IMG/VR virus record: IMGVR_UViG_3300049489_000417
Span: 1-59,183 of that record
Source of the DNA: a virus
Taxonomy: Duplodnaviria > Caudoviricetes
Reading direction: 5' to 3' (one strand)
Length of the DNA: 59,183 bases
Below, piece by piece: positions 3,205 through 54,718 of the stretch. Under the pieces are notes generated by a model. It was not told the DNA's origin and made no database searches. It saw only the letters and a program-made list of their open reading frames with translations. The position numbers and the translations under genes were made by a program. The stretch's first letter is position 1; each line of letters starts with the position of its first letter.

Positions 3205-6200
3205 TTACGCAGCTTTCAACTTAGCGATGCTGTCTGTGGCCAAGTTCAAAGCCGGGCTGAGAGCGAATGCCGGATCGTTAACCGCGCCGAGGCCCCACTC
3301 AGACGTACCGAGCAAACTAGCCTTTTTGATGGAGTACACCATCGCTTCGCCGGTAGTCATCTTGTCGATGTAGTCAGACCCAGTCAGCGTGTGCTTGAGC
3401 ACACCAGAGCCGTAGGCGAACGGTGTAGATGCAAGCAAGATCATCAATGGCGTAGCGTTGCTGTGCTCCATGTACTCGGTAAACGCGCGGCTGAGGATGA
3501 CGTCTTGGAACGCCATAGTGAACCGCTTCATATGGGCGAACAACATCCAGTGCGGGTCGTGCATCCACGGCGCGGTGTTCACTTCGTTGGGTCGTACAGC
3601 AGCGGAGTCCGCAAACGCAGCGACCGCGTTCATTATCTTCTTGCTGCCCCAGTCAATCTTGCCATCGACATCATCCTTGGTTAGCCCTAGTTCCTCGAGA
3701 TAGCGGGTGGATTCGTCTCCAGTTTTCCATGTGGCGTCTTTTGCATGACGCTCAACGAAGCCGCGCCCGGCTACAGAAGCGGCCACACGCATTTGGCGAG
3801 ACCAGCCGTCTAGCATGTTCCACTTGAAGAATACTTTCGAAGCTTTGCGCGCAAGGCCGGATGCGTTCTCACCGATGAACAGGTCGCCCATCGATTCCAT
3901 GTTGACCGTATGCTCGAGAATACCAGCATGTACGGCGTACAGCTCGTCTTCACTCAGCTGAACCGGCCCGCCGAGGCTACCTATAGTCTTTGGGAATGCG
4001 CTCATACCGGCGATGTACGCAGGGATGATGTCACCGAAGTTACCAGAGCGGGCAGCGATAGCGAACGGCTCAACCAGCGACGCGAACAGAGCAAGCGGCA
4101 GAGTCGCGAGGTTGGTAGCAACGGAGATGTTAGCCATCAGCTTGCGGACCTTCGGATCCATGTCACTACCAATACGCCCGTGCTGAGCGTCGAAGAATGT
4201 CTTAGCTGCGGCACCGACACGCGCGTTACCCTGCTTCTTAATTGCGGCGACCAAAGCTTCGGCCTTCTCAACCACCTCTTTCGGCATAACACGATGCTGA
4301 ACGGCGCGGTCTATGAGCGCGCCGAAATACAGGTCAGGATCGTACTGACGCCACTTCTGCTCCAAAGCTGGCTTTGTGAACATCTTGCTGGACTTCAAAC
4401 CAGGCATAACCGCCTTGTTGTCGACGATCTGATCCAGCGTGAGGTTCGCGTCCCGTCTACCGAACTCTAGGACGTCCGCGTTCCACGCAGCCGAATCCTT
4501 GTTGATAGCGGCGTAGTCGTACACAGGTGGGAGATCGTCCCAATCGCCGTGAAAATCCTTGATAGTGGTCATGACTTTACGCAGCTCTTTAGTTGCGTCG
4601 TCGTTGGCGGGCTGCCCGTCAAGGAGTCCTTTTAGCGCCGCGGTAACCGCATCGGTGCCGAACTTCTCTTTGTACAGGTCGTAGTCCGCACGCAAGCGGC
4701 GGTTCTCACGGATGCGCACATACGTAAGGCCGGTTGTCTTGTCCGCGTACATCTTAACGAGCTGGCGCAGCTCGGGGACGTTGTACTTGTCCGCTAGCGC
4801 AAGCGCGCTGACTTCGGCGCTTCGGAACACCTGACGAAGAGCTTCCGCAACTGGGGCCAAAGCTTTGGTGGCTCGCTCCACGATGCTGTCGAGCTGGCGA
4901 TAACCGAACTGCTTATCGACGGAGTCCATAGACCAGCCGGTCTTAGCCATGTCGCCTGAGATAAACGACTTGGCAAAGTTCTCAAACCGCATGTTCTCGG
5001 AAGTAAGTCGAAACGCCCACCGCAGGAACTTAAGCACCTTGTTCACAACGCCAGCGCTGTTATCACCGAGTGTAATCTTGCCTTGCGCAGCCAGTTCAAT
5101 AGCGTAAGCGATGCGCTCATCTACGTCGCGGCGCATAGCCGCGGATATCTTCTCGGCGTTGGGATGCCCCTCGAAGTGCTTGGCGATTTGCGACTGCAGC
5201 CAGACAGTAGACGACGCGCGGTCAAGTGTGCCGATAATGCGTTTGGCAGTGGCGTTGCCTGCGTCAGCGCGGTTACGGATCCCCGTGACCATGCGGTGCG
5301 CGGCCTCGTGCGTGAGCACGCCGTCGAGCGACGCAGCAGCGGTGGAGAACTGGATCACCTGGGTGTCTGTAACGATTTCGCCAGCTTTAGTAGGGTCACT
5401 GGTTATCTCAACACCGCGGTTCCACTCACCAAGCAGCTTATCAACGAAGGTGCTAGCGTACTTCAGCGCGTCGTCGGTAGTCTTGATCTCGTTCACCTCG
5501 GCTTCAGTGGCCTCACCGGTGTTCAGGCTCTGTTTACGCTTAGCGGTAACTACGCTTCGATTTTTCTGGGCCAGCTGAGCTAGCGACGGCTTACCTTCGC
5601 CGATCTGACCAGCTCGGTGCACGCCAACACGCGGGTTGTGCTGCTCGGGGTCGCCGACAATGCGTTTTAGCTCAGCCTTGAGCGCCGCTGCTACGGTAGT
5701 CTTGTCCGACCCCGCCTTGATCTTTTCCGCAGCGCGCAACCTTGCCGCTGTAACTTCAGCGTGTACGGGGGTAGCCTGGAGGGCGTCTATTTGTGCCTCT
5801 ATCTCCCTGACTCGTTCGCCGTTAGCGTTAACCAACCGCTTCTTGAGTCCGGCTATAGCTGACTCACGCAGCTCCGGTGTCATAAGCATCGCGTCGCTCT
5901 GCTTAACTTCCGAAGTACCAATAGGCGCTGCCGGGGCCTTCTTAGGGTCGTGCGTAATGCCCTGATTCTGTCGGATAGCAGCCTGGCGTTTAGCGTCAGC
6001 AACTTCGGAGTCGAGAAGCTTCTGAACACCAGAGTCCTTAGGAGTCGGTGCAACTTCAGCTTTCGCCATCGCAGACAGAGCAGCGTACGCATCACGTTGT
6101 GCCTGTTCGTACAACTCAGAAGTACCCGTCTCGCGCGTGAGTGGCGCTACGTCCTTGAGGGGGACCGGCTTGGTTTCTAGGGCCCCCGGCGACCGATCTC

Positions 6201-9200
6201 TAGCATACGTCTTTTTGCCAACCAGCTTGGCCATCATCTCTGCAGACTTCTCAGCCGCGTACGCGTCGCGCACGGCCAGGAGCTGCTGCCCGTACGGTAG
6301 CATAAGGATGGAGCCGTGCAGGAACGATACATCGTTAGCCAGGTCATGGATGATGCCGCGCATTTCCTGGTTAAGTTTCTCCGCCCCCAGCTGCACGAGC
6401 GCACGTACGGCTATACGCTGTTCAGGCTCAAGCTTGGCGATGTCCTGCATGACTTGAGGACGCTGGTCCTTGAACACAGTAACAAGCGACTTGGGTAAGG
6501 CAGCGCCAACTTTTTCAGCCTTGGCCACCATAGCCGCCATGGCCTGCCGCACGAGTTTGAGGTCACCGACTGTGTTACGTAGCGGATCCATGAGCATACG
6601 GCGCAGCTCAAACGGACGATCCGCCAGATCGTAAGCACCGTGGCTTATGTCTGTGGTGTCGGGGTCACCGAACGCGCTCAAGAACTCAAGCCCATCCGCA
6701 GACACCTTAGCGTTACGCGGGCGAGACCCCGTGCGGGCGACTGTCTTGGGTCTACTGTTGCGAGCGGTCTCGTTCTCCTCGAACCATGCGGCCGTGTCAA
6801 AGATGTTGTTGACGTTGTAGCCGTATTCTTTGGCAGAGATGTCGCCTTCAGGCGTGGCGGGCTCACTGTCGAGCCCGCGGTAGTACTCTGCCATGTACTC
6901 ATACAGCATCGCGTGCGCCAACAAGTCGCTTTCTTCGAGGCCAGAAGGATCAGCAAGCATCTCAGCAGACAGCTCGTCGATTGCGTTCTTGGCGTCGTCG
7001 TCGAAATTACTAGTGCCGACAACGTACTTGTTCTTGAGCCCAGCGAGCTTCTTATCAGCCTCTTTCTCGGCGTCGACCCCGCGCTTGGCGATACGCGAGA
7101 ACTTATCCTCGGGATTCGCCGCAGCGGCAGCTGGATCAGCGAGAGTCTTGAGAGGTTTAATAACCTTGTCTAGAGCACGTATTTCTTCGCTGATGCGCTG
7201 CGAGCGCTCGTAGTCCGGCTTATCCCCAGCCTCAGCCGCATCCCTCTGCTTAACAAGCTCATCTCGTTTTGCCTGCGCTGCGTCGAGTTCCTTACGCGGG
7301 CTCTTCACTGGCTTGCGGCGCTCGAGCGCACGGCGGAACTGCGCGGCCATGCTAGAGGCGTACGCTTCCATACCAGTGTTGAAATCGCGGTTGAGTCGAT
7401 TGCCGGACTGGATCACCTTGGAAAGCTCAACGATGCTGTCTTCAACACCTTTGGCATCGCCGCCGAGAGCTATACGCAACGCGCGTGTGGTCCAGCCGTG
7501 CATGTCCCCCATCTCACCGACGTTTTCACGGTAGCCGCTGATAACCTCGTCAACCGGCGGGCGCTTATCCTTGGCGACCATCTGGTAACCGCGGTACACG
7601 GCTTGGGCAATCGTTACTTTGTTTGCGTTACCGCCAAAGACACCGCGTACGGCGTTAGATACCTGCTGCACAAAGTGCGCTGGGTTCTCCCACGTCAACT
7701 CGCTGATGATGTCGAGCGCCTCAGGCGTGCGCTTCACCTCGTCGACCAGGTCATTAAGACGATACCCGTTACTGTTAAGGAACAGGAACTTGGACGAAGC
7801 TCCGCTACCAGCTACGTCGAACAGGCTGCGAACAGTACCTAGTGCTCCGCCATTTATCTCGACAAGGTCGGCTACAGCGATGTTCCGATTGGTAAGGTCA
7901 TCGCCGTCTACTTCTGGAAGATGGTCTTTGCCAATACCAAGCAGCTCTGTGAGGATAGCCACCTTCTGCGAGTGCGAAGCGGTAGCTATATCCTTCCCGT
8001 GCATAAGGCGGCTTACTATCGCAGGTATGAATTGGCCGAGCGACGGGTAGCGCTCCTGCATAACGAGCAGATCTGCTTCGTTCATGCCGGTCACGACTTC
8101 GCCTTTAGCTCCTTGGTTGCCGTAGACGGGTACGCGGGTCCACTTGGCAGCTTCAGCAAGGTCACCAGAATCGTTGCCATTGAGTGCCTTCGTAATGACC
8201 GAATTAGCTACAACCACACGGACAAACGACGGGTGCTTGCGGAGGAACTTGATTACGTCCTTACCTTGGTCCCAGTCGGCGAACCCAGCGTCGTCTTCCA
8301 GCGCGGCCAGCAAGGACCAGTCACCTACGAACGAGCTGAACTTGGCCGCGTCGAACCGAGGGGTCTTCATGGCTTCGTTAATTGACCGTACGGCTTCCGC
8401 GGGCAAACCGCTAGTAGCTGCGCTGATAGCCTGCTCACCAGCTTTCTGCGCGATAGTAAGCAGCTTGGTGAACATGGACTTGCGGCGGTCGTACGCTTTG
8501 GTACTCGGCGGAATCACACGGTTCACGAGCTGGTATCCAGACACAGTAGCCAGCGAAGCAAGGTCGTTATATCGTGCCTGCGCGGCCTTACTACCGGCTT
8601 TGCCGACCGTAGCGGAAGTGGTAGTAACCGCGCGAGCGATCTGCGGCAGCTTAGCACCGATGAGCGCAGACGGCACGGTGTTACGCAGATCGAAGTCGAC
8701 GCCACCATCACTGACAATATCGGCAGCTTCTGAGGAAGTATTTCCAGCCTCGGTATCTACGCGCTCGTCGTCGTCCAGGTCGTAGCCAAGATGTTGCCCG
8801 GCGGCGTTCTCGCTGACCACCTCACCTAGCGGAGTACTCTTCTTGGAGCGGTCCTCTGTAGTGCGTTTGGCATGGTGGACGCGAAGCGCGTCCAGTACGC
8901 GGTTCTGGATCTCCGGATCGAGCTTGGAGATGAGCTGGCGAACACGAGCCTCGCTTTGAGGGTCGAGCACGCTGCGTTGATTTGGCATACGCACGTATGC
9001 CGATTCTTGGTCTGCGGCTGCGGCAGTAGCGGTTGGATCGGCGTATGTGTTATACAGATTGTCGACGTAGTCGTTAATTGCCATCTGCCGGGAATTAGCA
9101 GAGTTCTCTACCTGCGCAACAAGCGACGCGCTCATCCACTTGGGCATGGACTTGTTGAACGCTTGATGCGTGGCTACTTCGATAGCCGTCTGTAGTTGCT

Positions 9201-11397
9201 CGCGCTGTTTGTCATTAAACGCGTCGCCGTATGGTACGTAGTCGTCGTCCCCTTCGGTCCACGGGAACGAATCAACGGTATACGCTTGCGTATTCGGCGG
9301 TCGGTTCTTATTCGCCTTGCGAACGGCTTCCGCTCTGCGGATAGTTCCGTACTTAGCAGGCGTCTTGGCCGCGACACGGCGCAGCTGCTGCTCCAACTCA
9401 GGTAGCGACGACAGTGCGCTGGTCACGATACCAGTGAGTTGCGGCGCTGCCAACCCGAGGTCTGCAAGCTCGTTGCGCTTAGCGTCTCCCTCAGGTCCGC
9501 GGAACTCAAAGACCTGGTTGATACTGTTCGCGAGCTCTGTCTGGAAGTTTGGCAGCGACTCATGAAGGTCTGGATTACTCCAAGACTCTTCTTCGACCAG
9601 CCGCTGGGCCGTGACCGGAGCCTGGCCGTACTCAATATCGTCCCGCTCGCGCGGAACTAGCGGGAGAGTCTGACCAATAGCAGGGTCATTATCAACATCG
9701 TCTTTACCACCAGTTCGCAAATCGCGCCGTACAGCGAGGTCCGCGTCAATAGCCTCGCGGTCCGTCATACCCTCGTCTGTATACCGCGTAGTGGTCGGCA
9801 GCACAGTGGTGTTGAGAGACTGTTTCGGCGTGCTCTTAGCCTTCTCAGCCACCAGGATTTGAATAGCTTCGCGCAACTTACCGGCTGCGTCGCCTTTGAC
9901 GGAGCGAGTGAACACATCCATCTGCTTACCGGCGTGGGCAAGCATCTTGGTGAGATCGTCACCAGCTGCAAGCTTCTCCCGGAACGCCGCGAGCTCCCCC
10001 GCGTAGTGCGTGCGCAGCTTCTCGTCCTTGGCGTGTGTAGCCATAGTGTCGAGGATGAACTCGAGCCCAGCGAGGCGGACCTCAGGGTCGATCTGCTCGT
10101 CACCGATGAGTCCGATAACCTTCTTCGCACGTTTGCCGCTGGTATCGAGGATGTCGTACGCGAAGTTGGTCAGGAAAGGTTTGATGGCTTCCGTGTCGTA
10201 CTTAGCCGCGGCGCCAGCCGCCCTCGCAGTAGCGCCTGCACGTTCGGCGAAGTCAATAGCAGCAGCACTAGCTGCGTCCATCGATGGATCTTCTCTGAAC
10301 GCCGCAAACCGCTCCTTCATAGCCCCGAAGGTGTCAATAGCCGATGCCCGCAGAAGATCGTACGTAGTAGACGAGCGAAGCTTCTCGTCCAGAGTCTTGG
10401 CGCCCTGCTTGGCGAAGTCGAGCGTGCTATTCGACGCGTCAATTACGCTCTCGGCAGCACCGCGTGCAGCGCCGCCCGCACCGGCGATACCAACTCCACC
10501 TGCAGCCTCGGCAGCTGCGGAGTCAACGAGCTCTTTTACGTCGAACCGGCTGGGGTCGATTTCTCCCGTCTCGGCGTACTGAACGGCACCCTGCTCAAGA
10601 GCGTTCTGGGCACCGCCAGTGAGGCCTTCTACACCGATGGCTGCACCACCCGCTTGCGCACCACGCGCGACGACGTTCGTAACCGGATTTGCAGACACGC
10701 CGAGCGTGGTACGCCCAACCTGAGTGAATGGCTTAGCAAGCCACTTAGCGCCTGCGGCAAGCGGAACGTAGTCAAGAGCAGTCTGGGCCAGACCAGCCGC
10801 CGCCGCTGTGCCGAGGTTATCAGTAGCATCGACGCCTGCTTCGCGCATGGCGGCGAGGTTGCCACCAGTCTGCGGCAAGAACGACGCGGCTGCAGCCCCG
10901 GGCATGGCTCTACCAGCAAGAGCTTTGGTCGCGAGCCCGCCACCGGCCATCTGCGCAATCGACGCCGCGCCTGAACCAGAGTTGAACGCGAGCCAGTCAG
11001 TCAGCTTACCCTGCGCAGCAGCTTCCGTGAAGCTGGACACAGACGTATCTACGTTAAACAGTGAGGCTTTATGTGCCTGTTGCTTTTGGAACGTACGAAG
11101 CCCCTGCACGATGGGGTTTTCTTTGCTAGTCAGCCGCTCCGCGGTGGTAGCCAACACATCCGCACCAGCGCCAATAGCACCATAGTTAGCGCTCTCCCAC
11201 CCCTTACCAGGCAGTGTGCTGGCCGCTGCTTCCTGCTTGAGTACAGCGTCCTCGTCAATAAGTGACGGGTAAGCTACAGGCTCTTCTGCTGGAGCTATGT
11301 AAGGTGTGGCGGTGTCTGCTCTTTCCGCCCCCATCTGCTGGGTAAGAAGCTTGTTGTACTCGGCCCCGGCACTGAGGTAGTCGCGGAGAGAAGCCAT
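3205..11397 (-). CDS. giant internal virion/ejection (polyvalent) protein with zincin-like HExxH domain
   Basis: 2730 aa, Ala/Gly-rich N-terminus, mostly helical, HEAAH at 5296-5310, no Cys seen, last gene of virion operon. Confidence 0.8.
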   Translation of the reverse strand: MASLRDYLSAGAEYNKLLTQQMGAERADTATPYIAPAEEPVAYPSLIDEDAVLKQEAAASTLPGKGWESANYGAIGAGADVLATTAERLTSKENPIVQGLRTFQKQQAHKASLFNVDTSVSSFTEAAAQGKLTDWLAFNSGSGAASIAQMAGGGLATKALAGRAMPGAAAASFLPQTGGNLAAMREAGVDATDNLGTAAAAGLAQTALDYVPLAAGAKWLAKPFTQVGRTTLGVSANPVTNVVARGAQAGGAAIGVEGLTGGAQNALEQGAVQYAETGEIDPSRFDVKELVDSAAAEAAGGVGIAGAGGAARGAAESVIDASNSTLDFAKQGAKTLDEKLRSSTTYDLLRASAIDTFGAMKERFAAFREDPSMDAASAAAIDFAERAGATARAAGAAAKYDTEAIKPFLTNFAYDILDTSGKRAKKVIGLIGDEQIDPEVRLAGLEFILDTMATHAKDEKLRTHYAGELAAFREKLAAGDDLTKMLAHAGKQMDVFTRSVKGDAAGKLREAIQILVAEKAKSTPKQSLNTTVLPTTTRYTDEGMTDREAIDADLAVRRDLRTGGKDDVDNDPAIGQTLPLVPRERDDIEYGQAPVTAQRLVEEESWSNPDLHESLPNFQTELANSINQVFEFRGPEGDAKRNELADLGLAAPQLTGIVTSALSSLPELEQQLRRVAAKTPAKYGTIRRAEAVRKANKNRPPNTQAYTVDSFPWTEGDDDYVPYGDAFNDKQREQLQTAIEVATHQAFNKSMPKWMSASLVAQVENSANSRQMAINDYVDNLYNTYADPTATAAAADQESAYVRMPNQRSVLDPQSEARVRQLISKLDPEIQNRVLDALRVHHAKRTTEDRSKKSTPLGEVVSENAAGQHLGYDLDDDERVDTEAGNTSSEAADIVSDGGVDFDLRNTVPSALIGAKLPQIARAVTTTSATVGKAGSKAAQARYNDLASLATVSGYQLVNRVIPPSTKAYDRRKSMFTKLLTIAQKAGEQAISAATSGLPAEAVRSINEAMKTPRFDAAKFSSFVGDWSLLAALEDDAGFADWDQGKDVIKFLRKHPSFVRVVVANSVITKALNGNDSGDLAEAAKWTRVPVYGNQGAKGEVVTGMNEADLLVMQERYPSLGQFIPAIVSRLMHGKDIATASHSQKVAILTELLGIGKDHLPEVDGDDLTNRNIAVADLVEINGGALGTVRSLFDVAGSGASSKFLFLNSNGYRLNDLVDEVKRTPEALDIISELTWENPAHFVQQVSNAVRGVFGGNANKVTIAQAVYRGYQMVAKDKRPPVDEVISGYRENVGEMGDMHGWTTRALRIALGGDAKGVEDSIVELSKVIQSGNRLNRDFNTGMEAYASSMAAQFRRALERRKPVKSPRKELDAAQAKRDELVKQRDAAEAGDKPDYERSQRISEEIRALDKVIKPLKTLADPAAAAANPEDKFSRIAKRGVDAEKEADKKLAGLKNKYVVGTSNFDDDAKNAIDELSAEMLADPSGLEESDLLAHAMLYEYMAEYYRGLDSEPATPEGDISAKEYGYNVNNIFDTAAWFEENETARNSRPKTVARTGSRPRNAKVSADGLEFLSAFGDPDTTDISHGAYDLADRPFELRRMLMDPLRNTVGDLKLVRQAMAAMVAKAEKVGAALPKSLVTVFKDQRPQVMQDIAKLEPEQRIAVRALVQLGAEKLNQEMRGIIHDLANDVSFLHGSILMLPYGQQLLAVRDAYAAEKSAEMMAKLVGKKTYARDRSPGALETKPVPLKDVAPLTRETGTSELYEQAQRDAYAALSAMAKAEVAPTPKDSGVQKLLDSEVADAKRQAAIRQNQGITHDPKKAPAAPIGTSEVKQSDAMLMTPELRESAIAGLKKRLVNANGERVREIEAQIDALQATPVHAEVTAARLRAAEKIKAGSDKTTVAAALKAELKRIVGDPEQHNPRVGVHRAGQIGEGKPSLAQLAQKNRSVVTAKRKQSLNTGEATEAEVNEIKTTDDALKYASTFVDKLLGEWNRGVEITSDPTKAGEIVTDTQVIQFSTAAASLDGVLTHEAAHRMVTGIRNRADAGNATAKRIIGTLDRASSTVWLQSQIAKHFEGHPNAEKISAAMRRDVDERIAYAIELAAQGKITLGDNSAGVVNKVLKFLRWAFRLTSENMRFENFAKSFISGDMAKTGWSMDSVDKQFGYRQLDSIVERATKALAPVAEALRQVFRSAEVSALALADKYNVPELRQLVKMYADKTTGLTYVRIRENRRLRADYDLYKEKFGTDAVTAALKGLLDGQPANDDATKELRKVMTTIKDFHGDWDDLPPVYDYAAINKDSAAWNADVLEFGRRDANLTLDQIVDNKAVMPGLKSSKMFTKPALEQKWRQYDPDLYFGALIDRAVQHRVMPKEVVEKAEALVAAIKKQGNARVGAAAKTFFDAQHGRIGSDMDPKVRKLMANISVATNLATLPLALFASLVEPFAIAARSGNFGDIIPAYIAGMSAFPKTIGSLGGPVQLSEDELYAVHAGILEHTVNMESMGDLFIGENASGLARKASKVFFKWNMLDGWSRQMRVAASVAGRGFVERHAKDATWKTGDESTRYLEELGLTKDDVDGKIDWGSKKIMNAVAAFADSAAVRPNEVNTAPWMHDPHWMLFAHMKRFTMAFQDVILSRAFTEYMEHSNATPLMILLASTPFAYGSGVLKHTLTGSDYIDKMTTGEAMVYSIKKASLLGTSEWGLGAVNDPAFALSPALNLATDSIAKLKAA

Positions 11398-38816: not shown

Positions 38817-40478
38817 TTATGCTGACATGTGTCCGCCGCCGCGGGTGTCGTTGCTTATGAACTTGCTCAGATTATCCTTCCAGGACTTAACCCCCGGCTG
38901 CTTAGGCTGTGGACGCGGCTTCTTGTCGACACACAGGTTCACTGCCCAGGCTAACGCATCAACTATATCATCATGTACCCCAGCGGGGAAGCGCAACATC
39001 TCGTTTACCGCCGTCTCGGCGAAGCTAGCCCCCTGAGGGAACCAAAACTTACCATGCTGCAACTTCCCTTGGAAGCTAGCAGCGCGCGCTAGCTTGTCAG
39101 TGAGGGGCCGAAGCTCTTCGTACGACGGATAAAAGTCCGCTTGCTGGAAGGCGTCGAGCACATAAGGACGTATCGCCTTCCATATGTGCGTATCTTCAAA
39201 ACCGACGAGCAGTGGGCAAGACTTTGTGGTACCCCACTTCTGTGCAAAGTCGATGATCGCCGACGTGATCGTATGCGAGTCTCCGCGGATCCGAACCATG
39301 TCCACGAAATGCAGATTATTCGCCGCATCCTGTACGAGGGTAACCCCGACTGTCCAGTCATTATGCGCTTTCTCCCCAATCGCAAAGTCCCACGCCTGAT
39401 ATACGTTGACGTTCTGCATCGCCGGTGGCTGCGGCTCCCACTTGATCCACTCCTTCTGAAAGAACATCCCCTCGTCAGGAACTGGGTTCTGCTGGTACAA
39501 GGCGCTCCACACACGTGGTGTCTGGTTCGCCTTGATAGACGTCATCATCTGCGCGTTGTAGCGCTCCGGATGGAGGGGGTCACCTGGAATCCGTACGAGG
39601 CGATGCTCTTCCGGCTTCTCCAGACAGTTGACGCCGGAAGACAGTAGTGTCTGACGAGGCCAGTAGTCAATACTACTTCTCTCTTCAGCGACTTCATCGC
39701 TGGTAAGGCGGACCAGACGATTCGTCGGCTCATGGATGAACTCGTACGTCTCTGCTATGGCTGGGTAAATAACAACTTCGAACTGATCGGCGGCTTCGTC
39801 CGAGTGCATCGCGGACAAAATCCTCCCACCCAGGTCGTCGTCGTGCCATCTTGTCTGTATCAAAAGTACCCCACCGCCTGGTGCCAGGCGCGTATATGCA
39901 GTTGACCAGTACCATTCCCACACCCCATCTCGTGTTATGGCGCTGTCAGCCTCTTCCTGGTTCTTGACGGGGTCGTCAATGATCAAGATGTGCGCGCCCT
40001 TGCCCGTAATACCACCCCCAACACCGGCGGCTGTGAAGCCGCCACCGTGCAAGGTGTTCCAAGCTTCTGCTGACTGACTGTCTGGATCCAGTTTCGTCTC
40101 TGGATAGAGCGGGCCATACCCCGGGTCTCGCACGATCTCGCGCACTTTGCGCGAAAACTTCATCGGGAGGTCGAGGTTGTATCCGCAATTGATGATTTCG
40201 TGATCAGGGTAATGACCGAGGTGCCACGCGGGGAACCGGATCGAGGCCAACTCACTCTTTCCGTGTCGGGGAGGCATGAAGATCGCAAGCCTGGGAGACT
40301 TCTTCGCAACCACGTCTCGAGAAAACTGCTCGAGTCGCTTGGCGATGTCGTTATGAATCCAACCGGCTTCATATTTTGGGTAAAAACGCTTCGTAAAGGC
40401 TATCAAAGACCGGCGAGCAAGGGCTCTTGCTGCAAATTCCGCCTTTACTGGCTGGGGAAGAGTGTTGAAATCGGTCAT
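38817..40478 (-). CDS. terL: terminase large subunit
   Basis: MPPRHGKS Walker A, ITGKGA, IIDDP Walker B, QTRWHDDD, LYQQNP, AWDFA, HDDIVDA nuclease motifs. Confidence 0.97.
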   Translation of the reverse strand: MTDFNTLPQPVKAEFAARALARRSLIAFTKRFYPKYEAGWIHNDIAKRLEQFSRDVVAKKSPRLAIFMPPRHGKSELASIRFPAWHLGHYPDHEIINCGYNLDLPMKFSRKVREIVRDPGYGPLYPETKLDPDSQSAEAWNTLHGGGFTAAGVGGGITGKGAHILIIDDPVKNQEEADSAITRDGVWEWYWSTAYTRLAPGGGVLLIQTRWHDDDLGGRILSAMHSDEAADQFEVVIYPAIAETYEFIHEPTNRLVRLTSDEVAEERSSIDYWPRQTLLSSGVNCLEKPEEHRLVRIPGDPLHPERYNAQMMTSIKANQTPRVWSALYQQNPVPDEGMFFQKEWIKWEPQPPAMQNVNVYQAWDFAIGEKAHNDWTVGVTLVQDAANNLHFVDMVRIRGDSHTITSAIIDFAQKWGTTKSCPLLVGFEDTHIWKAIRPYVLDAFQQADFYPSYEELRPLTDKLARAASFQGKLQHGKFWFPQGASFAETAVNEMLRFPAGVHDDIVDALAWAVNLCVDKKPRPQPKQPGVKSWKDNLSKFISNDTRGGGHMSA

Positions 40479-41065
40479 TTACCGAGGTCTTCAATCACAT
40501 GTGCACGAAGTTCGTCACTATTACTGTTGTTTTTCAGTGTTTCGCGTACTTCTAGCACCTCGCCTTCGATCTCTTTGGCGTTATCGGCGGCGATTTTCAG
40601 CAATTCTTCGTCACTTAGGGTCTCAAACTGGCTCATTAGCCGCTTGTGAGTGACGTCCATCTGGATTTTCTTCACTTCAGGCGCGTAATACCCACACATA
40701 CGCCCGACTTCGCGCCACCCTTGGATCATAACCTCTGGGTCTGCTTGTATTTTGGCCATCTCGATGGCTTCCATCATGCCGTCGAGGACGATTTCACGGT
40801 TCAGTTTCAAGTGTTTCTCCGCGTGAACGAAGCGTTCTGTAATTGCCTGCTTCACAACCGGCGCTGAAAACAGCCCCCTGGCTCCCGCCGGGCACTTATA
40901 CCCCGCGTACTCTAGCGCAGCGGTTTGCGTCATCCCCAAGTCTACAACGCCTTTGACCGCAAGCTTCTGCTTTTCGGTCAGCTGCGCTTCTGCCTGCATC
41001 AAGGCTGAGTGGGGGCGGATGTGTTTGCGTCCTTTTCCGGACGCGAATCTCTGTTTGGAAGCCAT
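40475..41065 (-). CDS. terS: terminase small subunit
   Basis: LTEKQ...QTAALEYAGY HTH, GRMCGYYAPE, LSDEEL; overlaps terL start. Confidence 0.85.
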   Translation of the reverse strand: MASKQRFASGKGRKHIRPHSALMQAEAQLTEKQKLAVKGVVDLGMTQTAALEYAGYKCPAGARGLFSAPVVKQAITERFVHAEKHLKLNREIVLDGMMEAIEMAKIQADPEVMIQGWREVGRMCGYYAPEVKKIQMDVTHKRLMSQFETLSDEELLKIAADNAKEIEGEVLEVRETLKNNSNSDELRAHVIEDLGK

Positions 41066-41090
41066 ATGAGCACTATACCAAAAAAATTCT

Positions 41091-41182
41091 AAAATTTTTA
41101 GAAAAGTTGGTGAATGAGGGTGTGAAGGCTACACCAAAAAATCCCGAAAATTTTTAGAAAAGTTGGTGAATGAGGGTGTGAA
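41091..41182. repeat. 36-bp direct repeat x2 (41091-41126, 41147-41182) at the late/early divergence
   Basis: AAAATTTTTAGAAAAGTTGGTGAATGAGGGTGTGAA twice, 56-bp period. Confidence 0.95.
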
Positions 41183-46863: not shown

Positions 46864-46940
46864 GGGCTCGTAGCTCAGACGGTTAGAGCAAAGGACTCAT
46901 AATCCTTCGGTCCTTGGTTCGAATCCAAGCGGGCCCACCA
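46864..46940 (+). tRNA. tRNA-Ile2(CAT) (lysidine type; elongator Met not excluded)
   Basis: Full cloverleaf, GACT-CAT-AATC anticodon arm, TTCGAAT T-loop, ACCA end. Confidence 0.9.
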
Positions 46941-48767: not shown

Positions 48768-51038
48768 ATGAACATCTACTTCCTGGAAGCAAAAGTACCC
48801 CTCACAAAGACTTTCAGACCAGATGGCACCTCAGACCAATACCCGCTTATCTCGAAGTTCACATCCTCGGAAGTCAGTGTCGCCTCTATCGAGGACCTCT
48901 ACGACGCCCTTGTAGCCCACAGCCAGAAGGGCCACTGTCTGCTCAAAGGCGCCCTCTCGCGCCCCCTTGTAAACGAGTCCCGCGCAGGGGCCACAGACCC
49001 TGACGCCCCCACGCAGTGGATCTGCATCGACATTGATGGCCTAACCGCCTACAAGGACCTGGACGCATGGATATCGACCACCCCGTTAGCAGACGTCTCT
49101 CATATAGTGAACTGGTCAGCGTCTTCTGGCCTGAAACCCGGCATTCGAGCCCACGTCCTCGTCTTGCTAGCTGCATTCGCCTCCCCAGCCACCATCAAGG
49201 CCTGGCTCAAATCTCTAAACCTTGGCGACGCCAATATCTCTGGGCAATTAGGCCTTACACGGGCCAAGGCCGTCATCAAGTGGGTCATAGACCCGACAGT
49301 GGCACAGAATGACAAGCTTATCTACACAACCGCTCCCGTTCTCATACCACCGCTGGCCGACCCTCACCCGGGGCTTTCCAGGTACGTACTCAATCTACGT
49401 ACCCAGCCATCGCTTACCCTGCCACCGATTGATGTTGAGAGCGTTCGCGCCGCAGAAACTAAGAAAACCAACGAACTGAGGGCCCTGGAAGGGCTCCCAG
49501 CCAAGAGGACTCACTCCTATGTACGTGCTGGCCAAGTTGAATACCTCTCAAAGCCTGGCGTCACGGCGGAAGTCACGGGCGTTAAAAAAGATAGGGGTTA
49601 CACCTATCTTAACCTTAACGGCGGTGATTCGTGGGGATACTATCATCCGGACAACGTCGTCGAGTTCCTTTATAACTTTAAGGGCGAACCGACCTATAAG
49701 CTTAAGGAAATTTGCCCCGACTACTACTCCACCGCGGTTAGTGAGCTTCAATCGACCCCGGACAAAACGGGCCGTGTCTTTTTGGCTTTTAGAGAGTTTC
49801 GAACCGGTCAATATTGGAATGGAGTCTTTGTCGCAGATAATAATTCGCTTAGTCTCGCGGCGGCCCGCAGTACTCAGCAGCTTGACCACTTCATGGCCCA
49901 GTATCAGGCCCCATGGGACGGCGTACCTAAAGACTGGTCTATCGAGTATGCCCCATCCAAGGCTAAGCGCGTGGACTTTGACCAACGAATAGTCAACACA
50001 TACGAAGCCCCTGGTCACGCCTACGATCCCAACACTCAATACACGCTTCCGCCCATAACCAAAAAGGTCATAGAACATGTTTGTGGCGACGTCCAGATTG
50101 CACAAATTTTCATTAATTGGCTCGCGTACATCGTCCAGACTAAACAGCGCCCTTCGACAGCATGGCTTTTCCACGGCACCCAAGGTACTGGTAAGGGTCT
50201 TCTTGCCAACTTCGTATTGCCTGCCCTCCTTGGCAGGGCAAATACGGCTCTACGACGCCAATCTGAACTGGAGGAGCGGTTCAACAGCTATCTCGAAGGA
50301 AAAATGGTCGTTGTGGTGGACGAAGTGCAGATGGGTGCACTATCCGGCGCTAAGCGAATCAACTCAGATATCAAAAATTACATCACAGAAGACACAATCA
50401 CCATTCGTCGTATGCGTGTGGACGGGTACTCGATTCCTAACACTTGTTCGCTAATCTTCTGTTCGAACATGCCAGATCCGGTCATCCTCGATGAGACTGA
50501 CCGGCGCATGCACATGGGCGCCTACCAGCCTAACAAGCTGCAGATCACACAAGCTGAAGTAGTCCAGCTCGAGAAAGAAGCTGAGCAACTTAACGGCTAT
50601 TTGCTGCAGTTCGCAGTAGATCCCGACAAAGCTCGATACCCACAATGGACTGAAGCCAAGAAAAATGTACTCGATCTGTCTCTATCCGGCCCTGAGGTTC
50701 TCGCTCGGGCCATTAAAGCAGGGGATTTCGCATACTTTGTTGATCAGCTACCCGATACAAGGCTTCAAACAACAATCAACCGCGAAGTCCAACTTAAAAA
50801 TTACGAGGCAACCCTGCGTGGCATTGCCAGGCGCGGAAATCATCTTACACGTGACGAGGCCCATACACTCTTCGTATGGACGCAGGGTACTGGCGAGGCC
50901 AGTACAACGAAGTTTGCAACATATCTTAAGCACCTTCGACTCGAGCTCAAGAAAATCCGTATTGACGGCCAGGTTGTTACGGCGATTCCAGTCAACTGGA
51001 ACGTTCTAGAAGCCGACAAAGCGAGGCTGGGCATATGA
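48768..51038 (+). CDS. primase-helicase (prim-pol N-terminus, SF3/DUF5906 helicase)
   Basis: CIDID and RAHV primase motifs; HGTQGTGKG Walker A, VVVDE Walker B, FCSN, DRR. Confidence 0.9.
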   Translation: MNIYFLEAKVPLTKTFRPDGTSDQYPLISKFTSSEVSVASIEDLYDALVAHSQKGHCLLKGALSRPLVNESRAGATDPDAPTQWICIDIDGLTAYKDLDAWISTTPLADVSHIVNWSASSGLKPGIRAHVLVLLAAFASPATIKAWLKSLNLGDANISGQLGLTRAKAVIKWVIDPTVAQNDKLIYTTAPVLIPPLADPHPGLSRYVLNLRTQPSLTLPPIDVESVRAAETKKTNELRALEGLPAKRTHSYVRAGQVEYLSKPGVTAEVTGVKKDRGYTYLNLNGGDSWGYYHPDNVVEFLYNFKGEPTYKLKEICPDYYSTAVSELQSTPDKTGRVFLAFREFRTGQYWNGVFVADNNSLSLAAARSTQQLDHFMAQYQAPWDGVPKDWSIEYAPSKAKRVDFDQRIVNTYEAPGHAYDPNTQYTLPPITKKVIEHVCGDVQIAQIFINWLAYIVQTKQRPSTAWLFHGTQGTGKGLLANFVLPALLGRANTALRRQSELEERFNSYLEGKMVVVVDEVQMGALSGAKRINSDIKNYITEDTITIRRMRVDGYSIPNTCSLIFCSNMPDPVILDETDRRMHMGAYQPNKLQITQAEVVQLEKEAEQLNGYLLQFAVDPDKARYPQWTEAKKNVLDLSLSGPEVLARAIKAGDFAYFVDQLPDTRLQTTINREVQLKNYEATLRGIARRGNHLTRDEAHTLFVWTQGTGEASTTKFATYLKHLRLELKKIRIDGQVVTAIPVNWNVLEADKARLGI

Positions 51039-51375: not shown

Positions 51376-51949
51376 CACGATCAGCCTTACCTGCTTCGTC
51401 GGTATCGTTAAAGGTACCGGCGACAAACAGGTAGTGGTCGGCAGTGCAGAGACCCCCGCGGCCCTCGAACAACGCATCCGCTCTGGCTTTCAAAGCCTGG
51501 ACGACCTCATCATCCGTCGCAACAAGATCAAAGCCGAACTAGTCCAGGCCAACGCAACCACGCCCGTGACCATCGCCGGCTGCACGTACACCATCGCCGG
51601 CGCTATCGAATACAAGCGTGCCATGGAGGTCGAGCGACAGATCGTTATGCACATGCGGGCACAGCTGGCCAAAGCCGAGCAGATTGTCCAACAGGGCAAC
51701 ACCAAGATGGAGACCGACATCGAGACTGCAGCCGTCGCCGCAGCTGGCGGGGACAAGAAGGCCGTAAGCACCGAGGTCTTCGAGATGGTCGCCGCGCCGC
51801 GTCGCGCCATGCACAAGCATGCGCTGCTCGACCCGGCCAATCTTCGCGAGAGCATCGAGCAGCGCGTGAAGCTCATCGAGGCCTTCGCGGCTGAGTGCGA
51901 CGTCGCACTGTCGGAAGTCAATGCACGCACCGAGATCGAGGTGAACTAA
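51311..51949 (+). CDS. long helical-hairpin/coiled-coil protein (resembles DIP1984/DUF6847-type family)
   Basis: TLTRALVELKTLDARI...ANATT.VTIAG..YTIAGAIEYK...LLDP...DVALSEVNARTEI. Confidence 0.8.
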   Translation: MAKITLTRALVELKTLDARISNTISLTCFVGIVKGTGDKQVVVGSAETPAALEQRIRSGFQSLDDLIIRRNKIKAELVQANATTPVTIAGCTYTIAGAIEYKRAMEVERQIVMHMRAQLAKAEQIVQQGNTKMETDIETAAVAAAGGDKKAVSTEVFEMVAAPRRAMHKHALLDPANLRESIEQRVKLIEAFAAECDVALSEVNARTEIEVN

Positions 51950-51950
51950 T

Positions 51951-52268
51951 ATGGCCCAGGTCACTCGCTATATCCACCTCCGCTTCAAGGACAGCGACGG
52001 GCGCCCTACTTCCCGAGGTGGGCTAACAGTCGCCTATCTCATCGATACCGAACTGGACTCTGTGATCCGGTGGTCAGCTGCCCGCTGTTCTTCAAACGAC
52101 AACTTCTGCAAGAGTACCGGGCGGACGATCTCACAAGGCCGGTTGCACAGCCCACGACTTAGTCGTACGATCTCGCCTTTGGCTGAGAAACTGTTTGTGA
52201 AACTGATGCACGAGACTCCGGTCAATCAGCTCTTCATCAACAGTCGGCCGATAGTGTTTATTCGCTAA
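51951..52268 (+). CDS. conserved phage protein
   Basis: GGLTVAY...ARCSSNDNFCKSTGR.I..GR motif. Confidence 0.8.
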   Translation: MAQVTRYIHLRFKDSDGRPTSRGGLTVAYLIDTELDSVIRWSAARCSSNDNFCKSTGRTISQGRLHSPRLSRTISPLAEKLFVKLMHETPVNQLFINSRPIVFIR

Positions 52269-52339
52269 TGTAGCTCAGTTGGTAGAGCAACCGCCTTGTA
52301 AGCGGTAGGCCAGTGGTTCGACCCCACTCATTAGCACCA
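52264..52339 (+). tRNA. tRNA-Thr(TGT)
   Basis: Full cloverleaf, ACCGC-CTTGTAA-GCGGT, ACCA end. Confidence 0.95.
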
Positions 52340-52347
52340 GTTTCAGA

Positions 52348-52423
52348 CGCGGGGTAGCGCAGTTGGAAGCGCGCCTGGCTCATACCCAGGAGGCCGTAGG
52401 TTCGAGTCCTACCCCCGCATCCA
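52348..52423 (+). tRNA. initiator-type tRNA-fMet(CAT)
   Basis: CGCGGGG acceptor with C1xA72 mismatch, CAT anticodon, CCA end. Confidence 0.92.
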
Positions 52424-52430
52424 GTTTTAC

Positions 52431-52508
52431 GACCGCCAATGTTCCAAGGCTCGGCGAGTTGGACTCCAAATCCGACTGTGTGGGGTTCGATTCCCTGGGT
52501 GGTCGCCA
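52431..52508 (+). tRNA. tRNA-Trp(CCA), atypical D arm
   Basis: GACCGCC/GGTGGTC acceptor, TTGGA-CTCCAAA-TCCGA, GCCA end. Confidence 0.85.
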
Positions 52509-52515
52509 CGTTTTT

Positions 52516-52877
52516 GAGTCTCATCAGCAGCGAACAAGTGAGAACTCTCAGCCCGTTCCTGGCCCGGGTTAAGCCAGGAAATTTGACTAGCTCAATGGTA
52601 GAGCGACACCCTGCTAAGGTGTATGTATCAGGTTCAATTCCTGAGTCTATGACGATGACTGACAGTCCGCCCGGGAGAGGGGATAACCCGATGAACCCGG
52701 AGACTTAAAAGGTCAACAGTCAGCGCTCAACGGTCAACCATGAACAGTCAACTTGTAACGGTAACACACTGAGGTCTAAACACCCATCGCTCTTAAAATC
52801 CTGGGTTAACGTTTTTGTGGGTTAGCTCGACAAGACCCCCACTTGTACGCCAGGCTGCTGTTTGATGAGACTCACCA
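52516..52877 (+). ncRNA. candidate large structured RNA with tRNA-like domain and heptamer array
   Basis: Perfect terminal inverted repeat 52515-52526/52863-52874 ending ACCA; further end pairings; tRNA-like D/AC/T arms 52585-52647; 7-nt repeats 52711-52765. Confidence 0.75.
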
Positions 52878-52890
52878 CACACTACACCCT

Positions 52891-53091
52891 ATGCCAGATA
52901 CCCGATTCCATGCAGAGTTCTACATCGACAAACAAGGATACCTCACAGGTCGTGTCCGCTTTCCTAAAGACGACAGCGCAACACTGGAAGCTCTCAACGC
53001 CATCATCGATGAGTACGCCAAACGACTCGAAACAAGCCACCACGACGTGATGAACCTCATACGGAGGCAGCACAATGAGTCAGAAAGTTGA
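52891..53091 (+). CDS. hypothetical protein
   Basis: Start MPDTRF right after the RNA element. Confidence 0.6.
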   Translation: MPDTRFHAEFYIDKQGYLTGRVRFPKDDSATLEALNAIIDEYAKRLETSHHDVMNLIRRQHNESES

Positions 53092-53236
53092 AGACTTGCA
53101 GAAGCAGATCGACCTTCTACGTGGCGGTCTCGAATACCTCGCTACCGAAGGTAACAGAGAAGACGCGGATCCTATGTACCTGGTTGAGATGGCAGAACAT
53201 ATCCTTGAAGAGCATAACGAACTCAAAAGGAATTGA
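53075..53236 (+). CDS. 53-aa acidic helical protein
   Basis: GGAGG RBS; MSQKVEDLQKQIDLL... Confidence 0.6.
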   Translation: MSQKVEDLQKQIDLLRGGLEYLATEGNREDADPMYLVEMAEHILEEHNELKRN

Positions 53237-53311
53237 AATGAAAACATCCGAACCGCATGGCTTGATGCTTAACGCACGCGCCGCCATCGCAAAGGCACGG
53301 GGGGAATAACC

Positions 53312-53668
53312 ATGAAAACATCTGGCTTGATCGGCCCCGCCCTTGATTGGGCAGTGGCGAAGGCTTGCTATACGGACGGCAGAACAATTTACACAGATAC
53401 AGGCATCGTCCTTATACACACCGCACCGGATAGCGGCATTCATTTTCGCTTCTCCCCGTCAATCGACTGGTCCCAAGGTGGCCCGATCATTGAGCGGGAG
53501 AAGATCAACATCCGTGATGAAGTCACATGTTGGAGTAGTTGGATGTGGGACTCAAATCGATGTGGTGATGTTTCTTATTACGGCCCTACCCCACTCATTG
53601 CAGCCATGCGCTGTTACGTTGCGTCCAAGTTGGGCGACGAGGTTGATGTACCGGAGGAACTGACATGA
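53312..53668 (+). CDS. NinX/DUF2591-family phage protein
   Basis: LDWAVAKA, FSPSIDWSQGGPIIERE, GPTPLIAAMRCYVASKLG. Confidence 0.88.
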   Translation: MKTSGLIGPALDWAVAKACYTDGRTIYTDTGIVLIHTAPDSGIHFRFSPSIDWSQGGPIIEREKINIRDEVTCWSSWMWDSNRCGDVSYYGPTPLIAAMRCYVASKLGDEVDVPEELT

Positions 53669-54066
53669 CCCCCATCCAAGACCACGCCTACCACCTACGC
53701 CAGCGCCTCATACGCGGCGACGAATCCGCCAAGCGCATGCATTTCCAAGCACTGGTGAAGATGGGCGTTGATGAGGTCGAGGCCGCGAACAGGTCCGGGT
53801 ATCACCACATCGTCCCGATTGACAAGTTCCTTCAGCGCTTCGGATGGACGCTAGTGGTCGGCTGCACATTGATCCTGCTCGGTCTGTACGCCAGTACGAC
53901 CGCTGCCAACATGGAGAACAAGGACAAGGTGCAAGAACTGACCAACCTTGAGCAAGCCGTGTACCGCTGCATGAAAGGCCAACCCATGATGATCGGTCAA
54001 GAGTGGTTCAAGTGCACCTGCCTGTCGAGTGACGACCCGAAGGGCTGCCCGGAGGAAGCGAAATGA
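53665..54066 (+). CDS. single-TM hypothetical protein
   Basis: ATGA coupling; TM segment. Confidence 0.7.
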   Translation: MTPIQDHAYHLRQRLIRGDESAKRMHFQALVKMGVDEVEAANRSGYHHIVPIDKFLQRFGWTLVVGCTLILLGLYASTTAANMENKDKVQELTNLEQAVYRCMKGQPMMIGQEWFKCTCLSSDDPKGCPEEAK

Positions 54067-54245
54067 AAAAGACCGCATGGTTCCCGCCGCACATCAAGCC
54101 GGTGCACGAAGGATGGTACGAGTGCAAATGTTGTAACTCGTCGTTCTGGTGGAATGGTGAAGTTTGGCTCTACGATATGGATTCTCCATTTAAAGTGCTA
54201 TTCCAAGAAATATACTGGCGCGGACTGACGGAGGAAGCGAAATGA
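54063..54245 (+). CDS. small Trp-rich phage protein
   Basis: WFPPHIKPVHEGWYE...WRGL motif. Confidence 0.75.
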   Translation: MKKTAWFPPHIKPVHEGWYECKCCNSSFWWNGEVWLYDMDSPFKVLFQEIYWRGLTEEAK

Positions 54246-54718
54246 AAAGGGCGAAACTAACAAAAGCAAATTTGCAGAACAAAGTAAGTATCTCAGAGAA
54301 GGGATGTTGGCTATGGAGTGGAGCTAGAAAAACAGCAGGAACTAGAGGGTTTTCATACGGATGGGTGACACTCGACGGAAAGCAACAGAATGCTCACAGA
54401 GCAGTATGGGCTCTATTTTTTGGAGACATACCGAGAGGTTTTTATGTGTGCCATAAATGTGACGTTCCTTTGTGTGTAAATCCAGACCACTTATTTCTAG
54501 GAACACCATCTGACAACATGCAAGATATGTGGAATAAAAACCGCCATAAAAGACCAGATGAAAGCAACCTGCACCGCAAACTAAGTAATGAACAGGTATC
54601 ACAGATAGTTGATCTTCTTTCAACCGGAGAAACACAAAAGCTAATTGCTAATAAATACGGCGTGTCGCAAGCGTGTATATCAAATATCAACACAAAAAGG
54701 AGTTGGGGGCGTGCGTAA
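54242..54718 (+). CDS. HNH homing-type endonuclease with C-terminal HTH
   Basis: GCWLWSG, AHR, VCHKCD.PLCVNPDHLFLGT..DNMQD; AT-richer than flanks. Confidence 0.92.
   Translation: MKRAKLTKANLQNKVSISEKGCWLWSGARKTAGTRGFSYGWVTLDGKQQNAHRAVWALFFGDIPRGFYVCHKCDVPLCVNPDHLFLGTPSDNMQDMWNKNRHKRPDESNLHRKLSNEQVSQIVDLLSTGETQKLIANKYGVSQACISNINTKRSWGRA

Follow-up and report, generated by a model that had tools for sequence, protein, structure and literature searches.

A tRNA-derived element with an incomplete acceptor stem in the tRNA gene cluster of a tailed phage

The YrlA Y RNAs imitate the D arm and the T arm of tRNAs, their genes adjoin the gene for Ro60 (Rsr), and some of them are encoded by phages, as stated in the parts of the work of Chen et al. 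that concern these RNAs (Chen et al., 2014; PMC4201824). The layout given there is characterized by a closed acceptor-like stem-loop between the T arm and the D arm, and the body of the RNA is joined at the anticodon side. Phage tRNAs of another kind are treated in sections of two studies on antiviral defence, in which they replace host tRNAs that have been cut by defence nucleases (van den Berg et al., 2023, PMC10264068; Azam et al., 2024, PMC11555353).

Here we report on a tRNA-like element with the anticodon GCT in the DNA of a tailed phage. The window, i.e., the whole stretch of DNA that was analyzed, comprises an entire IMG/VR record of 59,183 bases with an estimated completeness of about 77%. 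Terminase, portal, head-closure and large virion-protein genes occupy roughly the first 41 kb and are encoded on the minus strand, and a block of replication and early genes on the plus strand starts at about 42 kb. The latter includes the gene for a 756-aa primase-helicase-like protein (48768-51038), the best named relatives of which are found in the Pseudomonas phages KPP25 and phiR18 (37.6% identity). ARAGORN predicted five tRNA genes in the window, namely, a tRNA-Met(cat) located at 46864-46940 and four that form a head-to-tail cluster (Thr, Met, Trp and "Ser(gct)"). The fourth and final unit of this cluster is the element described here, and it lies in a stretch without a convincing gene (52509-52890) 1.5 kb downstream of the primase-helicase gene. 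The genes flanking the cluster encode a NinX-like protein of 118 aa (downstream), a protein of 212 aa (upstream) and an HNH endonuclease, and otherwise could be assigned to no family; among the proteins encoded near the cluster none with a tRNA-related function was seen. The HNH homing-type endonuclease gene (54242-54718; PHROG matches to E 4e-33) follows the tRNA cluster at a distance of 1.6 kb, and where phage tRNA regions have been rearranged, genes of this type are often involved.

The features of the element and of its surroundings are compiled in Table 1. The original prediction had described a D arm, an anticodon arm, a T arm, a 5-nt variable loop and the anticodon GCT, and all of these are accurate to the base. 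It was also right in stating that a CCA is lacking locally, the discriminator A being followed by CGA, and that the long variable arm of serine tRNAs is absent. The three pairs between GAC (52585-52587) and GTC (52645-52647), which mark the limits given in that prediction, are the only contiguous ones of the acceptor stem, and a T-A pair at 3-70 raises the total to four of seven. In the acceptor of seven positions assigned by ARAGORN and Rfam (52581-52587 / 52645-52651), 1-72 (A/G), 2-71 (T/T) and 4-69 (T/T) are unpaired, whereas in the D arm, the anticodon arm and the T arm 14 of 14 pairs are standard ones. No other partner for either acceptor strand was found within 52000-53400, i.e., about 700 nt on each side. 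The usual core letters of tRNAs, T8, A14, the GG of the D loop, T33 and the TTC..A of the T loop, are in place; positions 15 and 48 (in the usual tRNA numbering) are both A and form no purine-pyrimidine pair. The minimum free energy structure of the isolated stretch of 73 nt consists of the three arms and a short acceptor (-17.6 kcal/mol).

Table 1. Coordinates of the tRNA cluster, of the GCT element and its parts, of the bracketing repeat, and of short-armed GCT tRNAs in other contigs. Positions refer to the window unless a contig is named.
Feature	Position	Strand	Remarks
tRNA-Thr(tgt), first cluster unit, CCA encoded	52264-52339	+	ARAGORN, Rfam
tRNA-Met(cat), 1-72 unpaired, CCA encoded	52348-52423	+	ARAGORN
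tRNA-Trp(cca), weak D stem, CCA encoded	52431-52508	+	ARAGORN; homologue with re-paired acceptor in contig L212
Long-range inverted repeat, left arm	52515-52540	+	
Hairpin of 8 bp, TTCCTGGC / GCCAGGAA, 9-nt loop	52556-52580	+	abuts position 1 of the tRNA-like unit; read from sequence
tRNA-like unit	52581-52652	+	ARAGORN tRNA-Ser(gct) 52581-52653; Rfam RF00005 52581-52652
5' acceptor strand ATTTGAC	52581-52587	+	positions 3, 5, 6 and 7 alone pair with the 3' strand
D arm GCTC-AATGGTA-GAGC	52590-52604	+	4/4 pairs; 7-nt loop with GG
Anticodon arm ACACC-CTGCTAA-GGTGT	52606-52622	+	5/5 pairs; 7-nt loop; anticodon GCT 52613-52615
Variable loop ATGTA	52623-52627	+	5 nt, class-I shape, without long arm
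T arm TCAGG-TTCAATT-CCTGA	52628-52644	+	5/5 pairs; loop TTCAATT
3' acceptor strand GTCTATG, discriminator A (52652), then CGA (52653-52655)	52645-52655	+	
Long-range inverted repeat, right arm	52840-52874	+	
Short-armed GCT tRNA, contig L213	1-41		
Short-armed GCT tRNA, contig L214	2995-3068		
Short-armed GCT tRNA, contig L215	239-313		
Short-armed GCT tRNA, contig L216	3381-3456		
Short-armed GCT tRNA, contig L217	2152-2226		

The YrlA RNAs, to which the element had been compared in the original prediction, resemble it in that both copy the D and T arms of a tRNA without being tRNAs. However, as far as the structure is laid out in the relevant parts of that source (Chen et al., 2014; PMC4201824), the arrangement is the opposite one. 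The element has the order D, anticodon, T, its anticodon arm is complete, and the acceptor, which is open and has three pairs, is the part that is missing. In addition, a search for Ro60/TROVE (PF05731) gave no match in the contig, which is about 77% complete, with a control that was positive in 2 of 14 genomes. The analogy therefore fails, on account of both the missing Ro60 gene in the contig and the different topology.

A closer comparison is that with ordinary phage tRNA clusters (RF00005), with which the element shares the cloverleaf core, the head-to-tail place and the detection by the same models. It differs from their members by an acceptor with four of seven pairs, by the lack of an encoded CCA, by a GCT anticodon on a short-loop body, and by the 72-nt spacer with a hairpin that precedes it; the spacers between the first three units of the cluster comprise 7-8 nt. 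The remaining tRNA genes in the window, four in number and starting at 46864, 52264, 52348 and 52431, all encode CCA. The match of the element to RF00005 (50.4 bits, with a gathering score of 29; E 7e-8 over the whole window) excludes a chance look-alike. Of the four RF00005 matches in the window it has the lowest score, the others reaching 65.5, 71.6 and 74.6 bits, and with 43.8% its G+C content is lower than that of its three cluster neighbors (53.9-67.1%). Both ARAGORN and RF00005 match, and the element is clearly of tRNA ancestry. At the gathering score, nothing besides RF00005 was matched by Rfam in the whole window, and at E values up to 1 within 51800-53400 the Trp gene was weakly matched by the tRNA-Sec model and an lncRNA was matched by chance, with no further additions.

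The tRNA-Trp(cca) that precedes the element is unusual in another way. Its D stem consists of one G-C pair and three G-T pairs, its anticodon stem has 6 pairs, and its score is below the RF00005 threshold; it is matched by the tRNA-Sec model alone (27.5 bits). A near-identical tRNA-Trp core is present in an IMG/VR contig (L212, 8930-9006), in which four positions of each acceptor strand are changed compared to the window and all seven pairs are kept. Because the stem differs on both strands with pairing retained, this gene looks like a working, if unusual, type of phage tRNA. The GCT element is without compensatory-change support of this kind.

The original prediction had argued that perfect arms combined with a missing acceptor suggest selection rather than decay. 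Two null models were simulated on the GCT element with a re-paired acceptor, each with 20,000 trials. When 3 to 10 substitutions were scattered, at least three broken acceptor pairs and none elsewhere were obtained in 59-191 of the 20,000 trials, i.e., in at most about 1%. When the letters at the four outermost positions of the 5' strand were randomized, at least three pairs were broken in 41% of the trials. The argument thus holds against scattered decay and does not hold against a single terminal replacement. All three mismatches are confined to the outer four acceptor positions (1, 2 and 4), and one remaining pair among these four is about the chance expectation. Because the replacement of four letters yields the pattern so often, a rearrangement at the edge is sufficient and selection is not needed. 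The intact 14 pairs of the other arms together with the intact core letters indicate that the element is either very young or maintained.

The reading that we favor, and to which we would give about an even chance, is that the element is a recently disabled tRNA copy that has been truncated at its edge and does not decode. The lesions that would disable it are the three unpaired positions of the seven in the acceptor, CGA in place of CCA, A15/A48, the lowest RF00005 score, and the low G+C content. The outer four positions of one acceptor strand would have been lost, probably in a single rearrangement. The element would be transcribed together with the cluster, and its core of D, anticodon and T arms should still be foldable. 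With three contiguous pairs and no CCA, neither RNase P nor the 3' maturation machinery nor any aminoacyl-tRNA synthetase should accept it well. Remnants of tRNAs in phage tRNA clusters are a known kind of thing, and this one holds little that is new unless relatives display conservation.

The element is not a serine tRNA in shape. True serine tRNAs, such as those in two of the IMG/VR contigs listed in Table 1 (L214 and L216), have a length of 85 and 88 nt and a paired variable arm, and seryl-tRNA synthetase needs a long variable arm. Gene finders nevertheless label the element tRNA-Ser(GCU), although it has neither the long arm of serine tRNAs nor a usable acceptor, and for these two reasons it should be left out of the decoding repertoire of the phage. 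At present, the significance of the element is largely one of annotation.

The body that carries the GCT anticodon was compared with bacterial and phage tRNAs. The GTDB was scanned with the D arm and the anticodon-stem core of the element, and the anticodon was left free. The matches listed, at least 157 bacterial tRNAs, carried the anticodons GCC (106), TCC (21), TTT (14), CCC (9) and GTT (3) and four that occurred once each, and not one of the 157 had GCT. The anticodon GCU would accordingly seem to be ill-fitting on this body. A blastn search for the nearest tRNA in 50,697 phage records returned a tRNA-Asn as the closest sequence (80.4% over 56 nt, E 3e-5), followed by Arg, Thr and Ile. As far as the letters go, the body is therefore an ordinary class-I body nearest to Asn- and Arg-type phage tRNAs, and a single substitution would turn several ordinary anticodons into GCT. 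No ancestor can be singled out, because Lys, Gly, Asn, Cys and Thr bodies among the GTDB matches listed are equally close, with a core identity of 44-46 of 57 positions alike.

Is GCT on such a body found elsewhere? IMG/VR was scanned for class-I-shaped GCT tRNAs with the common GGTAGAGC D-arm half, and GCT tRNAs with a short variable loop were detected in five unrelated contigs (L213-L217; Table 1). Four of these tRNAs are complete. The acceptor is sound in L214, L216 and L217, and that in L215 has two unpaired positions. For the tRNA in L216, CCA is encoded and a tRNA-Asn is closest over the full length, and blastn placed the one in L217 closest to a tRNA-Arg; Asn and Arg tRNAs are also the nearest matches of the element in the window. 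In L214, the short-armed GCT tRNA adjoins a true long-armed tRNA-Ser(gct). The tRNAs of L214-L217 and the element in the window have in common the class-I shape, the GCT anticodon and the location in phage tRNA clusters, but an alignment (70% mean column identity) revealed no homology between them beyond generic tRNA letters. Short-armed phage tRNAs have thus acquired GCT more than once and from different ancestors. The combination may therefore sometimes be a trait that is kept rather than damage, and this counts against the reading as a disabled copy. The recurrence of class-I GCT tRNAs on Asn- and Arg-like bodies in unrelated phage contigs is a small lead.

These tRNAs bear on the view that the element is a working, unusual tRNA, which would tolerate the T/T oppositions and the open 1-72 position, receive its CCA later, and read AGC and AGT with an amino acid specified by its body. 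Class-I GCT tRNAs with a sound acceptor do exist, in L214, in L216 (Asn-like, with CCA) and in L217 (Arg-like). The original prediction had expected a call as a pseudogene, and ARAGORN with the option -rp gave no such flag. The fold of the isolated element described above, i.e., three arms plus a short acceptor, is in line with this view as well, and AGC and AGT make up 284 of the 834 serine codons in 24 large ORFs. However, the acceptor has only three contiguous pairs, and the CCA is missing in this one gene although the phage encodes it in its four others. The acceptor identity features for the Asn, Arg, Gly, Cys and Thr synthetases would be unreadable in an unpaired stem, and the decoding of serine codons as another amino acid would be expected to harm the phage proteins. 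We regard a function in translation as very improbable and continue to favor the disabled copy.

Relatives of the locus were sought by several routes. The only close relative in IMG/VR is one contig (L002) with a primase that is 87% identical, but this contig stops about 460 nt past the primase gene, inside the next gene and before the cluster. Seven metagenome loci with primase relatives had 32-38% identity; no tRNA cluster was found beside the primase in the KPP25 region or in six of these seven loci (L009 was left out), in all of which together ARAGORN found one tRNA-Glu. For the upstream 212-aa gene no further relatives were found. The NinX-like gene of 118 aa has relatives in 80 listed loci (44-54% identity), six of which hold tRNAs, none of them a GCT tRNA. 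The element itself was searched for in IMG/VR with an exact 33-mer and with a pattern of the D arm plus the anticodon, neither of which had any match, and the body pattern with a free anticodon had one, an unrelated tRNA-Cys(gca) in contig L091. Megablast of 51800-53400 against phages returned just a 50-nt piece of the tRNA-Thr in 7 records, and the left and right flanks of the element had no blastn match in the phage collection even at low stringency. Of three sequencing runs, one (X1) is probably the source sample. An RNA run (X2) contained a single identical contig of 175 nt (51464-51638, from a gene 1 kb upstream) and left the element uncovered except by tRNA-Thr of other organisms, which has no bearing on expression. 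In the third run (X3), a relative was represented by short contigs (52849-52933 and 52979-53069), none assignable to the element. The lack of homologues reflects a lack of sampled relatives and is not a proof of loss. Among the sequences found there seems to be no sign of conservation of the GCT element, with the one close relative ending before the cluster.

The surroundings of the element contain a long-range inverted repeat, and the original prediction had regarded the element as embedded in a large RNA. The repeat has a core of 12 perfectly matching nt (52515-52526 / 52863-52874) with a gapped extension (52515-52540 / 52840-52874), and it brackets about 300 nt including the tRNA-like unit. 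The duplex energy of -34.4 kcal/mol was matched by 5 of 1589 controls with the same geometry; when the offset was free, 11 of 278 control positions were as strong. The fold of the 352-nt region has a z-score of -1.69, with 5 of 100 shuffles as good, and forcing the three tRNA arms costs 7.4 kcal/mol compared to the free fold. A scan for promoters and terminators on the plus strand of 52100-53500 found nothing, and copies of the helix arm that could be traces of a mobile element are not present elsewhere in the window at 0-1 mismatch. An embedding in a large RNA is thus not established, what is left being one long-range helix of moderate significance. Bracketing stalks are processing sites in ribosomal RNA precursors, and the inverted repeat may likewise serve for processing, or it may act as DNA.

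The phage tRNAs that counteract defence systems are of interest for an alternative in which the element is a maintained, non-aminoacylated tRNA-like RNA that serves as a decoy or sponge for anticodon nucleases or modification enzymes, perhaps as a domain of an RNA of about 360 nt. They are alike in being members of phage tRNA clusters and in that host nucleases attacking tRNA anticodon loops offer an explanation, as set out in the corresponding parts of the two studies (PMC10264068; PMC11555353). The tRNAs treated there are complete and can be charged, whereas the GCT element is not plausibly chargeable and could act only as a competitor. The alternative profits from the precedent of phage tRNAs documented against tRNA-cleaving defences in these parts of the literature (van den Berg et al., 2023, PMC10264068; Azam et al., 2024, PMC11555353), from the rarity under scattered mutation (at most 191 of 20,000 trials) of a pattern in which only the acceptor is damaged and the 14 pairs of the other arms are all spared, from the bracketing helix, which so few controls of the same geometry match, and from the failure to find a convincing gene in 52509-52890. 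The cluster also contains tRNAs for Met and Trp. Isoacceptors of tRNA-Met and tRNA-Trp are targets of VapC-type nucleases.

On the other side of this alternative, no homologue was found that could display conservation or covariation, Rfam offers no family besides RF00005, and the 352-nt region barely beats its shuffles. The cost of imposing the three arms and the equal strength of 11 of 278 free-offset controls point in the same direction, and no known decoy of such a design, nor any acceptor-less tRNA competitor, was reported in the open-access literature searched. Altogether, a maintained decoy appears rather unlikely to us. The more specific version, in which the element is the tRNA-like domain of an RNA of about 360 nt that is freed at a stalk of about 25 pairs (52515-52540 / 52840-52874) and soaks up tRNA-directed nucleases or enzymes, has a low probability in our view. 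Such an RNA, lacking an acceptor end, would not be consumed by translation. If this were true, the element and the short-armed GCT tRNAs of the five contigs would hint at a class of phage tRNA derivatives that are kept for non-decoding reasons. Many tRNA-cutting defences are now known, and the acceptor-less form, if it were conserved in relatives, would be a first tRNA-shaped competitor RNA of a phage.

The stretch around the element is rich in short repeats. A run of 7-nt units resembling GGTCAAC with an iteron-like pattern extends over 52708-52767, and the tRNA-like unit is flanked on either side by a high density of TGAC/GTCA motifs. The cumulative G-C skew of the window, in the flat bottom of which the stretch lies, has its minimum at 53752. 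It could be argued that 52509-52890 is functional as DNA, i.e., as a replication origin or a protein-binding region, and that the tRNA remnant merely happens to lie inside. The proximity to the primase-helicase gene would fit this explanation, as would the 7-nt units at 52711-52738 (Tandem Repeats Finder: period 7, 4 copies), which lie within three copies spaced by 14 nt at 52715-52762, and an 11-nt palindrome, GACTGACAGTC, at 52657-52667. Also in line with it are the fall of the cumulative skew, which ends at about 51.6 kb, with a rise after 54.1 kb, and the uniform orientation of all genes from about 42 kb. However, the skew has a flat minimum that extends over 53.0-54.1 kb and gives no indication of the stretch, the window contains the 7-mer GGTCAAC at no more than about its expected frequency (10 matches versus 7.4 expected), and the contig is only about 77% complete. 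Moreover, a second repeat-rich intergenic region exists between the divergent gene blocks (41073-41182). We see only a slight chance that the stretch has its function at the DNA level, and a recently disabled tRNA copy is still the explanation that we prefer for the element.

Two further possibilities were considered and rejected. A context of RNA repair was dismissed, since no RtcB was found in the contig, and so was an attachment site containing part of a host tRNA, given that no PF00589 integrase was found and that GCT did not occur among the 157 GTDB matches listed.

Several observations on other parts of the window may be added. In the tRNA-Met(cat) of the cluster the ends of the acceptor, C and A, are unpaired, which we take to be the mark of a bacterial initiator tRNA, while the second tRNA-Met(cat) at 46864-46940 is fully paired. 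On the minus strand, an ORF of 2730 aa (3205-11397) has ends that match the virion structural families phrog_30152 and phrog_6958 and a middle part assigned to no family. In the repeat-rich region at 41073-41182, a 56-nt unit is present in two tandem copies (90% matches). This region is placed just past the minus-strand gene 40475-41065, and the first genes on the plus strand follow near 41.9 kb; it is a candidate for a regulatory or origin region.
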